Made by a program: the position numbers and the translations under genes. Below the pieces are notes generated by a model that saw only the letters and a program-made list of their open reading frames with translations, was not told the DNA's origin and did not search any database. A stretch of DNA of 28,538 nucleotides from Candidatus Woesearchaeota archaeon (lineage in GTDB: Archaea; Nanobdellota; Nanobdellia; Woesearchaeales; CAXGTL01), in assembly GCA_964012725.1 (NCBI GenBank), contig CAXGTL010000013.1:1-28538 (forward strand). Reading direction: 5' to 3'. Below, in pieces: positions 9,258-28,538 of the stretch. Numbering within the stretch: the stretch's first letter is position 1; each line of letters begins with the position of its first letter.

Positions 9258-9325
9258 AAAGGTTTCGGAAATTGTTATGCAATTTTAGAAGCCTTTATGC
9301 TCAAAAATCTATGATTTTTGTTGTA
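9258..9325. repeat. intergenic repeat copy D (degenerate double-hairpin module)
   Basis: GTTTCGGAAATTG-ttatg-CAATTT...GCCTTTATGC-TCAAAAATC-tat-GATTTTTG aligns with the hairpin modules of copies B and C. Confidence 0.45.
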
Positions 9326-9432
9326 TAAATGTTTTGGTTTAAGAACTAAAGATTTAACCATTAGAAGAGCTGAAATGCATTAATTCAAGTGTTTAAAGAG
9401 TTTAGAATAAGTGTTTTTAAGGTTGAAATTGC

Positions 9433-18572: not shown

Positions 18573-18915
18573 TAACGTAGGGAACTGCTTAACTGACGGC
18601 ACCATGTGCTGAAGAAAGTCCATCCACTGCTGGCAGAGTTTTTATATGAAAACTTATGTCTTAAAATGCTACTCTAGGAATAGAGATCCTTAATAGGATG
18701 GTAAAGGCTCAGAAACGATATCCCTATCTGTTAGCTATGATGTGGCGAAGTACTGGGTGACTTGTATGAGATCCCACAGAGTGTTTGAGCAGATAGGAAG
18801 ATTGAAACGGTGATTCCTTAGCAAGTGAAAGTTCAGTATGAACGAATAGTAGAATGTTAAGATGGTCTGTCCTAACGGAGACCAATAAAAGGTGGCTTAT
18901 AGGTTTCCTACGTTA
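18573..18915 (+). ncRNA. rnpB: RNase P RNA
   Basis: CR-I-like GAAGAAAGTCC (18611-18621), TGAAACGGTG, and CR-V-like ACCAATAAAAGGTGGCTTAT (to 18900). The 5' TAACGTAGG pairs with the 3' CCTACGTTA as P1. Locally GC-enriched island with a TATA-like box ~25 nt upstream and an oligo-T tract downstream. Confidence 0.8.
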
Positions 18916-18930
18916 CTTTATTTTTATCTT
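18916..18930 (+). terminator. oligo-T tract after RNase P RNA
   Basis: CTTTATTTTTATCTT lies immediately after the P1 3' strand, as expected for an archaeal oligo-T terminator. Confidence 0.4.
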
Positions 18931-19200
18931 CATCTAAAAATCCTACTTCGTTTTACTCATTTCATTCGTAAAACTACGCCTGGCCATGCCATGTTTGCCA
19001 AACAAACATAGGCATACACGTGTCGGAAATGCAGAGCATTTCTGAGCATGATCAGAAATTTCCAATTTCTGACAGCACAGGAGGATATTTTGAATGAAGC
19101 TAAACTAACAGTTAAATATATAAACTAATAAAAAAATACATATTAACATGGTTAGAAATCTCTGATTTATAACCAACGAACGAAACGGAGTGAAGTGAAA
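18931..19200. repeat. intergenic repeat copy B (composite, with inverted ends and four hairpins)
   Basis: Inverted arms at 18946-18972 and 19176-19200. CTGGCCATGCCAT box at 18980-18992. Hairpins at 18986-19015, 19026-19042, 19052-19072 and 19150-19174. Confidence 0.7.
19112..19125 (+). promoter_or_regulatory. TATA-like box for the secG/hel308 transcript
   Basis: TTAAATATATAAAC. The predicted TSS is near 19148, which places hairpin 19150-19174 and the leader motif in the 5' UTR. Confidence 0.4.
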
Positions 19201-19218
19201 TTGTCAAAAGATAATAAA

Positions 19219-19380
19219 ATGAGAATGCCATCAGGCATGGGTGGACTAGTAAGGTATTTTGATGATTATAAATCAAAGATAGAGTTCAAACCTCAGCATG
19301 TTATTATATTAGTGATCATTGTTTTAATTATTGAAATTATATTACATCTTTATGGTTATTCTTGGTTTGGCTTTTCATAA
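19219..19380 (+). CDS. secG: preprotein translocase subunit Sec61-beta (archaeal SecG)
   Basis: MPSGMGGLVRYFDDYKSKIEFKPQHVIILVIIVLIIEIIL matches the archaeal Sec-beta pattern (aGLvRYfde...kp.hVi + TM). The ORF-track start at 19195 is a GTG inside the repeat, so I prefer the ATG at 19219. Confidence 0.82.
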   Translation: MRMPSGMGGLVRYFDDYKSKIEFKPQHVIILVIIVLIIEIILHLYGYSWFGFS

Positions 19381-19382
19381 TT

Positions 19383-20966
19383 ATGACTCAAATAGCAACT
19401 GTAACAAATAATTATGTAATTGATTTAGCATTAAATACAATTTCTATTGGAAAGCAAGCTTTAGTTTTTGTTAATTCTAAAAGAAGTGCTGAAAAAACTG
19501 CTGAAGACCTTTCCCGTCAAATAAAGAATGTTGTTTTGAATGATTTAAGTGAAAAAATGTTACATGCTTTACCAAAGCCAACTAAACAATGCGAAAGATT
19601 GAGTAAATGTATTAAAAATGGAATTGCATTTCATCATGCAGGCCTTGTTCATAAGCAAAAGGAAATGATTGAAGATGAATTTAGAAGTGGTAAGATAAAA
19701 GTTATTTGTTGTACACCAACACTTGCAGCTGGTGTTGATTTACCTGCTTTTCGTACTATAATAAAAGATTTAAGAAGATATAGTTCTCGTGGATTAAACT
19801 GGATACCTGTTTTAGAATATGAACAACAAGCTGGTAGAGCTGGTCGTCCTAGTTATGATGATTATGGAGAAGCTATATGTATTGCTGTTACTGATTCTTC
19901 TAGAAAAGAAATTGTTAAAAGATATATTAATGGAGAAGTTGAAGAAATTTATTCTAAGCTAGCTGTTGAGCCTGTACTTCGTACTTATGTTTTGTCTTTA
20001 ATTGCATCTGGTTTTATTACTTCTAGAAATGATTTGATTGATTTTTTTTCTAAAACATTTTATGCTTATCAGTTTAAGGATATGGATAAAATAAAATCAA
20101 TCATGGATAAAATGATTCATCTTTTGACTAAGTTTGAGTTTATTATGAAAATTAACCACACAGAAGATGATGATTCTAAGAATAATGAATTTACTTCTGC
20201 AAATAAATTAGATGAAGATAATAAAAACATTAATTACAAAGCAACAATAATAGGAAAAAGAGTTGCACAGCTTTACATTGATCCATTAACAGCTAATTAT
20301 TTAATCAAACATGTTAAATTAGTTAATATAAAGAATGAAATAAGTTTTTTACAATTAATATCTCATACTTCTGAGATTCGGCCTTTGTTAAAAGTTCGGA
20401 ATAAAGATATGGAAGATGTGAATGAGTTCTTGTTAAGGCATAATGTTTTTATTTTAGAAAAAGAACCAGAAATATATGATTCTGAGTATGATGAGTTTTT
20501 GTCTTCAATTAAAACTTCAATGTTTTTCTATGACTGGATAAATGAAAAAGATGAAGAGTTTCTTTTAGATAAATATAATACTAGGCCAGGTGAGATAAAA
20601 GTTAAATTAGATATTGCTGATTGGTTACTTTATTCAACTGAGGAATTGTGTAAGCTTTTGAAGATGCATTCTGTTGTAAAAGAGATTATGAAATTAAGAA
20701 TAAGATTGCAGTTTGGAGTTAGAGAAGAATTACTTGGTTTACTTAGGTTAAAGAATATTGGGAGGGTTCGTGCGCGTAAGTTACATTATAATAAAATAAA
20801 AACAATTGAAGATGTTAAGAAATGTGATTTATTGAAATTAGTACAGATTCTTGGTAAGAAGACTGCAATTGATGTCAAGGAACAGGTTGGTATCAAAGTG
20901 GATGCAAGTAAAATTATAGTCAAAAAGAATAAAAGAAAAGGTCAGATTAGTTTGTTGGATTATTGA
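19383..20966 (+). CDS. hel308: Hel308/Ski2-type helicase, C-terminal part only (RecA2, winged helix, ratchet and HhH domains)
   Basis: Begins just before the RecA2 strand (KQALVFVNSKRSAEKTA). Motifs IV-VI are present (CCTPTLAAGVDLPA, QQAGRAGRP), as is a C-terminal HhH-like region. No Walker A or DEAH-box region occurs upstream in any frame. Confidence 0.8.
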   Translation: MTQIATVTNNYVIDLALNTISIGKQALVFVNSKRSAEKTAEDLSRQIKNVVLNDLSEKMLHALPKPTKQCERLSKCIKNGIAFHHAGLVHKQKEMIEDEFRSGKIKVICCTPTLAAGVDLPAFRTIIKDLRRYSSRGLNWIPVLEYEQQAGRAGRPSYDDYGEAICIAVTDSSRKEIVKRYINGEVEEIYSKLAVEPVLRTYVLSLIASGFITSRNDLIDFFSKTFYAYQFKDMDKIKSIMDKMIHLLTKFEFIMKINHTEDDDSKNNEFTSANKLDEDNKNINYKATIIGKRVAQLYIDPLTANYLIKHVKLVNIKNEISFLQLISHTSEIRPLLKVRNKDMEDVNEFLLRHNVFILEKEPEIYDSEYDEFLSSIKTSMFFYDWINEKDEEFLLDKYNTRPGEIKVKLDIADWLLYSTEELCKLLKMHSVVKEIMKLRIRLQFGVREELLGLLRLKNIGRVRARKLHYNKIKTIEDVKKCDLLKLVQILGKKTAIDVKEQVGIKVDASKIIVKKNKRKGQISLLDY

Positions 20967-21325
20967 GGTATTTCTTTTTGTAAAATAGATACAAGATCTC
21001 TAGGCATGAATGGTTTTTCTATTATACCTTTTGCGCCATATTGAATTACATCTTCTCTTTCTTGAGATGTTGCTCCACCAGTCATAGCATACATAATAAG
21101 TTCAGGATATAATTGTTTTGCTTCATGAATAAGTTTATCTCCTTGCATATTAGGCATATTTATATCAGTAAATAAAACCTTAACATCAGGATGTTGTTGT
21201 AATACTTCTAAAGCTTCTAAACCATCTTCTGCTTGTAAAACTTCATAACCTGATCTTTCCACAACCCTTGCTCCAAATACACGTACAATTTTTTCATCAT
21301 CTACAATTAATACTTTATATGTCAT
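20960..21325 (-). CDS. stand-alone response-regulator receiver (CheY-like REC) domain
   Basis: DD pair (LIVDDE), phospho-acceptor Asp (LFTDINMP), Thr (AMTG) and Lys (EKPF) are all present. No output domain. Confidence 0.85.
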   Translation of the reverse strand: MTYKVLIVDDEKIVRVFGARVVERSGYEVLQAEDGLEALEVLQQHPDVKVLFTDINMPNMQGDKLIHEAKQLYPELIMYAMTGGATSQEREDVIQYGAKGIIEKPFMPRDLVSILQKEIPQ

Positions 21326-25483: not shown

Positions 25484-25498
25484 ATATTGTCACCTTTT

Positions 25499-25524
25499 GT
25501 TGATTTTAAATCAACGATGTTAAC
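25499..25524. promoter_or_regulatory. operator-like site 1: perfect palindrome GTTGATTT-T-AAATCAAC overlapping the repeat TTAAATCAACGATGTTAAC
   Basis: Lies between the grpE TATA-like box (25538-25551) and the grpE Shine-Dalgarno, close to the predicted TSS. Confidence 0.5.
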
Positions 25525-25582: not shown

Positions 25583-25595
25583 TAGTTCGTTTACG

Positions 25596-25614
25596 TTAAA
25601 TCAACGGAGTTAAT
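25596..25614. promoter_or_regulatory. operator-like site 2: TTAAATCAACGGAGTTAAT (17 of 19 identical to site 1)
   Basis: Lies between the wHTH gene TATA-like box and its ATG, suggesting autoregulation. Confidence 0.45.
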
Positions 25615-26653: not shown

Positions 26654-27787
26654 TCAATACTTTTCCAAAACATCTTTAATCTTTCTAACAGTAACATCCC
26701 ATGAATATTTCTTAATCACAGTCTTACGTGCTTGCTGTCCTAAGTCAAATCTTTGGTGTGGTTTTTGTAATAAGATCTCTAACTTCTTTCTAAGAACTAA
26801 CCAATTTTCTTTTGGAAATAATAAACCATTCTTTTTATCAACAATATACTTTTTTAAAGCTGGTAATGAAGTTACAACAACTGGTAAACCACATGACATT
26901 GCTTCTAATGTTGATAATGAAGTTGTTTCTGTTAAACTAGGTAATACATAAATATCCATTGCTTGTAAAAAAGGGATTACATTATCTTTTTTACCAGTCA
27001 TTATTATATTTTTCTTATCTTTGAAAATCTTTTCCTCAGATTCTGGTCCTTTACCAACTAATAATAACTTTGCATTTGGATATTTTTTACTAAGTGATGT
27101 AAAAGCCCTATGTAAAGTTAAAAGATTCTTTTCCCTACCAATTCTTCCAGTATAACCAATTATTTTATGCTCTGGATCAAAACCTAAATCTATTTTCGCT
27201 TGTTTTTTATCTTCTGGAGGTTTGAATTTATCAGAATTAATACCTAAAGGAACAACTGTTTTAATTGCTGTGATTTTTTCTTTTTCAAAAACATAAGCAA
27301 TATTGCTCGTAGGTATCATTAAGATATTGCATTTATTGTAAACTCTTTTTGAGAATTTCCTAGCAAACCAATAAATAAACTTTTTTATAAACCATGGAGC
27401 TTTAACACTTTTAATAACAATGTCCCAGTTAATAACATGAACATATGAAATAATTGGTTTGTTAAGTTTTTTTGCTAATTTTATTGCAGAATAACCTAAA
27501 GTACTAAGATCTTGTACCCAAACAATATCAGCTTTTTCAATATGTGGTTTTATTAATTTTTTAGAAAACTTTGCAATAGGTAAATCATCTATAACAAATC
27601 TTGATAAAGGTGCTCTGATAATTTTTACATCTGGTATTTCTGTATGTTCTCCAGGAAAATTTGGAGCAATAACAGTAATTTCATAGTCTTGTTTTAATCT
27701 TGGTATAACTTCTGCTAAAAACCTAGAAACACCGTCCCACCTAGGTAAAAATGAATCTGAAACTATTAATAAATTTCTTTTACTCAT
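26654..27787 (-). CDS. GT4-family (GT-B fold) glycosyltransferase
   Basis: N-terminal LLIVSDSFLPRWDGVS and C-terminal PSLTETTSLSTLEAMSCGLPVV (E-x7-E motif). I prefer the ATG at 27787 (MSKRNLL). The longer ORF-track start at 27832 lies inside a repeat hairpin. Confidence 0.85.
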   Translation of the reverse strand: MSKRNLLIVSDSFLPRWDGVSRFLAEVIPRLKQDYEITVIAPNFPGEHTEIPDVKIIRAPLSRFVIDDLPIAKFSKKLIKPHIEKADIVWVQDLSTLGYSAIKLAKKLNKPIISYVHVINWDIVIKSVKAPWFIKKFIYWFARKFSKRVYNKCNILMIPTSNIAYVFEKEKITAIKTVVPLGINSDKFKPPEDKKQAKIDLGFDPEHKIIGYTGRIGREKNLLTLHRAFTSLSKKYPNAKLLLVGKGPESEEKIFKDKKNIIMTGKKDNVIPFLQAMDIYVLPSLTETTSLSTLEAMSCGLPVVVTSLPALKKYIVDKKNGLLFPKENWLVLRKKLEILLQKPHQRFDLGQQARKTVIKKYSWDVTVRKIKDVLEKY

Positions 27788-27870
27788 ACTCACTTCACCT
27801 TGCTCCGTTCGTATGTCATAAATGCAAAGCATTTATGAGCATGATCAAGAATCTTTGATTCTTGACAGAT
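27788..27870. repeat. intergenic repeat copy C (leader plus double hairpin upstream of the GT4 gene)
   Basis: CACTTCACCTTGCTCCGTTCGT, then CATAAATGC-aaa-GCATTTATG, GAGCATGATCA, then TCAAGAATC-ttt-GATTCTTGA-CAG. Matches modules of copy B. Confidence 0.7.
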
Positions 27871-27890
27871 TTTAAATTTTATATTTAAAA

Positions 27891-28538
27891 TCATTTTATT
27901 TTCAAAAACCTCTCTGCATATTTACCATCAATTCTAAAACCATTGATCAAAGCTTTGATATACATCATTATCAAAGGAAAGTAATTAAAAAATGTTGTTA
28001 ATGAAAGCTGACTTTCAAAACAACCAACTGCTCTTAGTTTTGTTTTAAATGTTTTTGTTACATCAACATAAAGCTTAGGATAATGTCTTTTTCTAAAATT
28101 AAAAGGATTCCATACATCAAAAGTATAAAGTTCTTCTTGATAATTAATTCTGTCTAATACTTGATCAACTAATTTGTAAACTTCTCTATGATTTGGATGT
28201 GGATCATCAAAACTATGTGTAAATATTTTTCCTGGTTTATACTTTTTTATAAATTCAATTAATTTTTTAGGAATGTTTTTTGAATATGCATCTTTTGTTA
28301 AATTTAGTTCGTCAAGTCCTAAGAAAAATACACCAGAACCACCAATAATTTTGTCTGCTTTTTTTGCTTCATCAACTCTTGTTTTAATTGCTATTTCTTT
28401 TTTAATATGTGGCATAGAGAATTCTCCATATGAAAATATTACTGTAATTATCCTTTTACCTTGTTTTGCATACTTAGCTAATGTTGCACCTGGACCAAAG
28501 ATTTGATCATCTGAGTGTGCGCATAGTACTAAGATTGT
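27891..28538 (-). CDS. PIG-L/LmbE-family N-acetylglucosaminyl deacetylase (5' end runs off the window)
   Basis: The reading frame stays open to the window edge. Upstream of the ORF-track Met it reads ILVLCAHSDDQIFGPGATLAKY (AHxDD motif), followed later by HPNHREV. Confidence 0.85.
   Translation of the reverse strand, partial: TILVLCAHSDDQIFGPGATLAKYAKQGKRIITVIFSYGEFSMPHIKKEIAIKTRVDEAKKADKIIGGSGVFFLGLDELNLTKDAYSKNIPKKLIEFIKKYKPGKIFTHSFDDPHPNHREVYKLVDQVLDRINYQEELYTFDVWNPFNFRKRHYPKLYVDVTKTFKTKLRAVGCFESQLSLTTFFNYFPLIMMYIKALINGFRIDGKYAERFLKIK

Follow-up and report, generated by a model that had tools for sequence, protein, structure and literature searches.

The REP, BIME and REPIN repeats are extragenic palindromes of 20-40 nt that occur as singletons, as head-to-head dimers a few bp apart and in small clusters, and REPs include heterodimers with different stems, carry short conserved flanking tags, vary in presence at orthologous sites and sometimes lie within genes (PMC3733652, PMC6006769). 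REPINs have been reported as not detected in archaea (bioRxiv 10.1101/2021.07.10.451892). The Neisseria REP2 and Borrelia IR repeats directly precede ORFs, to which they supply stem-loops, an RBS and an ATG (PMC3184786), and a census of MITEs placed a Woesearchaeal genome among the archaea richest in these elements (PMC11602168). The window analysed here, a stretch of 28,538 nucleotides with a GC content of 28%, contains a leader motif upstream of secG and GT4 that is probably the product of small REP-like insertion elements of one lineage of AT-rich DPANN archaea (Woesearchaeota/Nanoarchaeota). The closest homologues of secG and GT4 are labelled Nanoarchaeota or Woesearchaeota in their source records. 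The lineage is present in marine metagenome assemblies, Tara Oceans among them, its GT4 protein was found on a 121-kb contig and in several independent assemblies, and the element was likewise found in independent assemblies. The Tara Oceans metagenome runs ERR599172, ERR594346 and ERR599037 include this organism.

The original prediction had described a hairpin followed by a conserved single-stranded stretch that precedes both genes, and both sequences were confirmed as quoted, namely ATGgtTAGAAATCtctGATTTATAAccaACGAACGaaaCGGAGTGAAGTGAaaTTG on the plus strand at the secG side (19148..19203) and ATGctCATAAATGCtttGCATTTATGacatACGAACGGAGcaaGGTGAAGTGAgtATG on the minus strand at the GT4 side (27840..27785). 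The full pattern, in which a hairpin precedes ACGAACG-N7-GTGAAGTGA-N3-(A/T)TG, was recovered by a pattern scan of the window at exactly these two sites, and its core, ACGAACG-N7-GTGAAGTGA, occurs only at 19176-19198(+) and 27812-27790(-). ACGAACG is itself found twice in the 28.5 kb versus 0.05 expected occurrences, a count reached in 0/100 shuffles. When the two copies are aligned without gaps, the GT4 ATG at 27787, placed there because GT4 homologues begin MKK/MKQKK-LLIVSDSF, falls opposite a TTG at 19201 that is in the secG frame and aligned with the secG ATG of relatives. Most genes of this genome are leaderless, their TATA box occupying about -32 to -25 relative to the ATG, and a leadered minority carries GAGGTGA or GGAGG at -10 to -15. 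As the GGAG/GGTGA of the motif occupies the same position (-10 to -15), it would be an ordinary Shine-Dalgarno (SD) sequence.

Orthologous loci of relatives, designated here by numbers with the prefix L, were retrieved via their proteins, which are mostly 70-95% identical to those of the window. A protein-anchored scan of GTDB genomes yielded one relative, and a helicase-based metagenome scan yielded 13 distant loci without secG synteny, which were reused as clade sequence for the covariance model described below. About 48 kb of the source genome was read. In five lineages (L076-L081, L082, L083, L084 and L085) the start of secG lies about 24-26 nt after a TATA box, and secG is thus leaderless in all of them. 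The TATA box of the window, TTAAATATATAAA, is identical in L076, L082, L084 and L085, where the ATG follows directly, while L083 has a different TATA box in the same leaderless layout. The L062 sequence starts 12 nt upstream of the secG ATG, and those 12 nt contain no SD, leader or insert. Among the secG orthologues compared, a 53-nt insert is unique to the window lineage; it matches the profile of what we term e-type elements with an E-value of 1e-13, and the alignment with relatives shows that the ancestral sequence, CAAAAGATAATAAA, resumes after position 19204. The features of this locus are as follows.

18929..19109, no strand assigned: lineage-specific block (about 180 nt) that separates the secG TATA box from the RNase P RNA terminator and holds a hairpin (18986-19015) and double hairpin B
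19112..19124, plus strand: secG TATA box TTAAATATATAAA; the ancestral start, leaderless, follows after about 24-26 nt
19148..19151, plus strand: ancestral secG start ATGG, placed by alignment, now the 5' end of the leader and partly paired in the hairpin
19152..19204, plus strand: e-type insertion e3, 53 nt, absent from L076, L082-L085 and L062
19149-19175, plus strand: e3 hairpin, TGGTTAGAAATC/tct/GATTTATAACCA, with one G x A mismatch
19176-19182, plus strand: e3 ACGAACG
19187-19193, plus strand: e3 SD-like GGAGTGA
19190-19198, plus strand: e3 GTGAAGTGA
19201-19203, plus strand: TTG, the probable new secG start

A 5-codon ORF (MVRNL*) now starts from the ancestral ATG at 19148, and its stop codon is in the loop of the hairpin. 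After the insertion, the in-frame upstream starts available to secG (Sec61 beta, 19201-19380) are the TTG at 19201 or a GTG at 19195, with the next ATG at 19218. Gene callers missed secG on the contigs of this lineage and called it in every relative. The block of about 180 nt is lacking in L076, L082 and L085, in which the end of the RNase P RNA adjoins the TATA box; in the window this archaeal RNase P RNA spans 18577-18911 (Rfam RF00373, 98 bits). A second copy of the block beyond its double hairpin was sought and none was found, and the block was rejected as a MITE, as only a weak inverted repeat could be made out by eye at its ends (CTTCATCTAAAAATCC versus CTTCATTCAAAATATCC). Within it, the minus strand at 18930-18969 reads ACGAATGAAATGAGTAAAACGAAGTAGGA...ATGA, resembling an e-type tail (compare ACGAATGAGACGGAGG in L076); it comes after the hairpin at 18986-19015 and leads only into a 6-codon ORF, and it may be a decayed e-type copy. 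The helicase gene adjoining secG (19383-20966) encodes 527-534 aa in the window and L076 and 1036-1052 aa in L062 (7997-11107) and L085 (17279-20437), where an intein (Intein_splicing, LAGLIDADG) follows CTPTL. All versions start with MTQI and comprise C-terminal helicase domains only.

At the second locus, one ATGA forms the overlap of the genes PIG-L and GT4 in L062, L085-88, L089 and L090, and the same overlap is found in the outgroups L247 and L248, whose GT4 proteins are about 53% identical; the overlap is therefore ancestral. In L076, two copies of ATGA are separated by 48 nt, ATGA/TTTTAAATTTTACATTTAAAATTT ACGAACAGAGGAAACAAAGTGAGT/ATGA, with the design of a hairpin, ACGAAC, an SD-like purine tract and ATGA. 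L076 is the closest relative for most other genes, by a small margin, and the earliest branch in the GT4 tree. This basal position seemed at odds with a single gain of the GT4 spacer, but the two outgroups settle the polarity either way. In the window the spacer is longer and comprises the following parts.

27784..27894, minus strand: whole derived spacer, consisting of the PIG-L stop ATGA (27894-27891), 103 inserted nt (27890-27788) and the GT4 start ATGA (27787-27784)
27868..27892, minus strand: AT-only 10-bp hairpin GATTTTAAAT/ataaa/ATTTAAAATC, the element's own hairpin, with a homologous hairpin in L076
27813..27868, no strand assigned: nested double hairpin C, 56 nt, made up of hp2 (27845-27865), a linker and hp1 (27816-27838)
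27788..27812, minus strand: e-type tail ACGAACGGAGCAAGGTGAAGTGAGT, with the SD AGGTGA at -13 of ATG 27787; the homologous L076 tail is ACGAACAGAGGAAACAAAGTGAGT

L076 lacks double hairpin C and has its AT hairpin joined directly to the ACGAAC tail, and the GT4 leader of the window is an L076-type insert plus a nested 56-nt dimer. What had been taken for a TATA-like box upstream of GT4 (27868-27892) is this AT-only hairpin, which belongs to the ACGAAC tail. The suggestion that the motif lies in the 5' UTR holds in part: judging from its placement, with a conserved TATA box 5' of the secG copy, the motif is most likely part of a transcribed leader or intercistronic RNA, and the supposed promoter box of the GT4 copy is itself a hairpin. 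The hairpin originally compared at GT4 (27816-27838) is part of the later double-hairpin insertion, so the two hairpins are family-level relatives and not one evolving stem. The substitutions between the GT4 and secG hairpins, read as compensatory, accordingly join non-orthologous stems from separate insertion events. In the GT4 leader (27785-27843, minus strand), the minimum-energy RNA fold pairs CAUGCUCAU (27843-27835) with GUGAGUAUG in place of the local hairpin (z -2.9); this alternative fold covers the start codon, which it would occlude according to the folding model, and was not seen in the other copies.

A third, independent e-type element lies on the minus strand of L076 (16387-16340) between a gene for a 110-aa protein and a DUF3467 gene, where 48 nt, ATGA/TTCCAAATCTTGATTTTGAATCT ACGAATGAGACGGAGGCGAATGAGT/ATGA, split an ATGA overlap. 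L085, in which the same two genes overlap by ATGA, represents the empty site. In the orthologous copy of this element (e1) in L062 (3811-3868), the upstream ATGA is mutated to AGGA, so that the upstream ORF continues into the insert as far as a TGA within the loop of the hairpin; in addition, ACGAAT has changed to ATGAAT. Four e-type copies could be aligned with invariant ATG, AAAT, ATTT, ACGAA and TGA columns, and nhmmer E-values of the copies range from 1e-13 to 1e-7. The common architecture, 48-53 nt in length, is a hairpin, ACGAAY 0-3 nt after it, a purine-rich stretch with an SD core (GGAGG/AGGTGA), TGAGT and the start codon. Every e-type copy carries GGAGG, GAGG, GGAG or AGGTGA before the start, and at each of the three loci the start of the downstream gene follows an SD-like core located at about -10 to -19; for three of the four copies this core falls within -10 to -15. 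The 3' arms of e2 and e3 are AT-rich (TTTAAAAT, TTTATAA) and TATA-like, 24-28 nt before the start; e1 has no such arm. In the alignments of filled and empty sites, the e-type elements show insertion polarity at start codons at three independent loci, two of which are split ATGA overlaps and one a position just after a leaderless ATG. Judged from these comparisons, the shared leader motif is a recent, lineage-specific insertion of a hairpin-plus-RBS repeat and not a conserved regulatory RNA.

The hairpins themselves form a wider family. The unit is 21-27 nt long with the consensus TCAGAAATC-nnn-GATTTCTGA and flanks of ATG(A)/CATG; its stem of 8-12 bp varies in sequence with pairing kept, and units occur singly, as head-to-head dimers or as trimers. 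Dimers have the form TG-hp-(G/T)CATG(A/C)-hp-CA, with a 5-6-nt linker for which (G/T)CATG(A/C) is the usual sequence, and were found at 11 loci. All copies checked are extragenic, either between ORFs or in an RNA gene. Three dimers are located in or just outside the window, in addition to double hairpin C.

9266..9333, no strand assigned: double hairpin A (degenerate), with the right half CAAAAATCtatGATTTTTGTTGTATAAATGTT, absent at the syntenic L076 site
19021..19075, no strand assigned: double hairpin B, TG-(TCGGAAATGC aga GCATTTCTGA)-GCATGA-(TCAGAAATT tcc AATTTCTGA)-CAG, identified by folding and the covariance model
L001:4521-4588: further dimer copy just outside the window

Double hairpin C, taken as 27814-27868 (55 nt), matches double hairpin B at 78% of positions with paired substitutions, as had been proposed. 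Eleven units from the window and its relatives align to ATGn-TCAnAAATC-nnn-GATTTnTGA-CA, and across their eight stem pairs 92% of cells are paired and 6/8 pairs change on both sides. No shuffle out of 500 reached the observed pairing, and controls in which the stems were slid were 28-63% paired; the pairing score is lowered by one aligned unit that is out of register by one column. The stems are thus maintained through double-sided changes in further copies, in line with the original prediction, and covariation of the stem exists at the level of the family. As RNA, the dimers, which are heterodimers, fold with z-scores of -4.9 to -7 and form two separate hairpins; for double hairpin B the z-scores were -4.9 (plus strand) and -3.2 (minus strand). 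The single-hairpin e-type leaders, as RNA, fold like shuffles (z -0.3, -0.4 and +1.1).

We built a covariance model (R1) from six dimers. In 309 kb of clade sequence, R1 detected 11 loci at E<0.03, five of which had not been used in building it and some of which come from relatives whose helicase is only about 55% identical; double hairpins B and C matched with E-values of 3.5e-13 and 1.4e-14, respectively. On 828 kb of unrelated viral contigs R1 gave one match, at E 0.98. Sequence patterns for the leader, the dimer and the e-type tail also matched viral contigs, in every case without the hairpins, and none of the 36 loci matched by the dimer pattern has both of them; these matches were set aside as chance and used as a negative control. 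The dimers are restricted to the clade. Between the window lineage and L076, dimer sites are filled or empty in both directions: a copy in L076 with a 32-nt right half identical to that of double hairpin A lies at another locus, which is empty in the window lineage and in L085. In all, we saw e-type elements at three independent loci and about a dozen dimers, and the approximately 48 kb of the source genome hold 4-5 loci with about 11 hairpins.

Two copies have unusual surroundings. In L085, a 56-nt dimer (20910-20974) lies inside the RNase P RNA gene (20688-21071, minus strand), which at 384 nt exceeds its counterpart in the window (335 nt); the insertion site corresponds to Rfam model positions of about 68-77, within a variable hairpin. 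About 5-7 kb past the window end, L001:2955-4664 contains a Phage_integrase tyrosine-recombinase gene and then 1.1 kb without called genes, at the end of which a triple hairpin array, copy E (L001 4505-4590), lies directly upstream of a leaderless gene. A different palindrome, TTGATTTTAAATCAAC, is present in two copies (25496-25523 and 25586-25613) between grpE and the divergent gene for an ArsR/HTH_5-type regulator; L062 (2950-2968) and L076 (17338-17358) have it conserved at the equivalent position, and it is likely an operator of the grpE-dnaK-dnaJ cluster.

Several other identities were considered for the hairpin sequences. At the gathering threshold, an Rfam search of the whole window returned the RNase P RNA at 18577-18911 only; with E<=1, the two loci gave chance matches at E 0.3-1 (two C/D snoRNA families and SAM-SAH), and a search for tRNA and tmRNA found none. 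Archaeal C/D box sRNAs have terminal C (RUGAUGA) and D (CUGA) boxes and internal C'/D' boxes. The CUGA-GCA-UGAUCA of copy B resembles D'/C', but a 5' C box is lacking, AUGA/UUGA replaces CUGA in copies C and E, and the Rfam C/D matches are at E ~1, and we rejected this identity. A hammerhead-like core was likewise rejected, as CUGAGCA departs from CUGANGA and a conserved GAAA is missing. An asymmetry of G.T versus A.C was dropped as a test for the transcribed strand, since its direction was inconsistent, with copy A opposite to its flanking genes.

In the insertion-element reading that we favour, e-type elements inserted at start codons, and the GT4 leader then took up a nested 56-nt dimer. 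The elements would be co-transcribed with their host genes. At secG, transcription presumably proceeds from the conserved TATA box, with the hairpin at the 5' end of a new 53-nt leader, and at GT4 the element would be part of the PIG-L/GT4 operon mRNA. Initiation at the downstream gene would then depend on the tail's SD in place of leaderless initiation or translational coupling, which would explain the survival of insertions at start positions. IS200/IS605 ends have subterminal hairpins and are inserted 3' of a specific tetranucleotide with no true duplication. The hairpin may be the structure required for propagation, probably read as single-stranded DNA by an enzyme of the HUH/Y1 type or similar, as for REPs and IS200/IS605 ends, and this would account for covarying stems without a conserved riboregulator. 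Several observations limit this reading. No transposase (Y1/HUH, RAYT, TnpB or other) was present in the Pfam-annotated gene tables for the approximately 48 kb of genome and the loci of relatives, the sole recombinase seen being the integrase near copy E; the start of secG would be TTG, a rare start codon; and conservation of the hairpin consensus across distant relatives could instead mean a conserved binding site for a host protein.

The borders of the elements bear on the best-surviving alternative, namely that the copies spread by template switching or ectopic gene conversion at microhomologies (ATGA, CATG, TATAAATGT), with palindromes stalling forks and no dedicated enzyme. The direct repeats at the borders are ATGA twice, an imperfect ATGG/TTGT, GTTT and TATAAATGT (4, 4 imperfect, 4 and 9 nt). 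As their length varies (4, 4 and 9 nt), microhomology-mediated copying fits as well as transposition, and it is also consistent with the resemblance of element ends to the target (e-type ends ATGA; double hairpin A ends TTGTATAAATGT beside a TATAAATGT target), the absence of terminal inverted repeats and the fact that no transposase was seen in the loci examined. We nevertheless consider this alternative unlikely. Copies that are 30-35% diverged retain hairpin pairing and architecture, and the same architecture is present in relatives whose proteins are only about 55% identical, which suggests a propagation mechanism that reads structure.

The reading from which this analysis began, joint control of secG and GT4 by a conserved cis-regulatory 5' leader RNA, with the hairpin under RNA-level selection and ACGAACG as a single-stranded recognition site, now appears quite improbable. 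It is consistent with the exact 7-mer and 9-mer common to both genes at fixed spacing, with hairpins that remain paired, with the position of the secG copy downstream of a conserved TATA box, with the ACGAAY core in all e-type copies and with the alternative CAUGCUCAU/GUGAGUAUG fold over the GT4 start codon. However, the motif is absent at both genes in every relative examined, except at GT4 in L076, its copies being insertions of a repeat family, and a third copy lies upstream of an unrelated gene, DUF3467. Nor do the single-hairpin leaders fold better than shuffles or match any Rfam family, and the GT4 hairpin aligned earlier is a later nested insertion. It is possible that ACGAACG was later co-opted as a common protein-binding site. 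That the palindromes are promoter-proximal DNA operators for a dimeric transcription factor, whose gain and loss reflect regulatory turnover, merits very little credence: copies lie mostly near TATA boxes or starts outside genes and keep a half-site-like GAAAT..ATTTC and the core TGAnCATGnTCA across the clade, but the two sides of a stem position change in concert, although half-site recognition has no need of this, the insertions are clean (48-68 nt, one of them inside an RNA gene), and the e-type copy at secG lies 3' of the transcription start and interrupts the coding start.

A more far-reaching form of the insertion-element reading, which we offer tentatively and with some doubt, is that these are the first archaeal REP/REPIN-like mobile palindromes, kept across a DPANN order by a structure-reading enzyme, and that one subfamily is a portable SD leader that inserts at ATG(A), uncoupling overlaps and making leaderless genes leadered. 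If so, a portable SD leader would allow evolution to switch directly between the two archaeal initiation modes. If the insertion-element reading holds, it shows how a leaderless archaeal gene can gain an SD leader in a single step and how ATGA-coupled pairs can be uncoupled with neither gene lost. REP-like palindromic repeats would also be extended to archaea and to the very small DPANN genomes, which are expected to carry little selfish DNA. The case would also be a warning for annotation, since in this lineage the inserted element kept gene callers from detecting secG, and recurrent hairpin-plus-SD repeats can pass for conserved riboregulators when one genome is read.

Set against the described systems, the elements share with REPs and REPINs the form of extragenic palindromes (21-27 nt here), the inverted dimers and trimers, and the filled versus empty sites. 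Unlike REPs, they lack the defining GTAG/CGTC tag, having flanks of ATG(A/C)/CATG and TGTC...GACA, and their stems are AT-rich; unlike REPINs, a dimer here does not consist of two mutually inverted copies of one hairpin and forms no single long hairpin. REP families number tens to hundreds of copies per genome and have a cognate single-copy RAYT (Y1 HUH) gene flanked by the repeats; a RAYT was not found in the loci examined. They resemble MITEs in being non-autonomous, structured, intergenic and variable in presence between relatives, but at 48-68 nt they are under the usual MITE size, any terminal inverted repeats are at most 4-5 nt long, and the target duplication is not of constant length. 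In contrast to IS200/IS605-derived elements, which have left and right end hairpins, the e-type element has a single hairpin. In design it resembles REP2: the e-type element likewise combines a hairpin, an SD and a start, and in the GT4 spacer of the window an SD and an ATG are accompanied by three stem-loops. REP2, however, is a longer, bacterial repeat for which experiments have demonstrated promoter activity and a regulon, whereas the e-type elements are 48-53 nt long and are insertions at ATG(A) in an archaeon whose genes are mostly leaderless.
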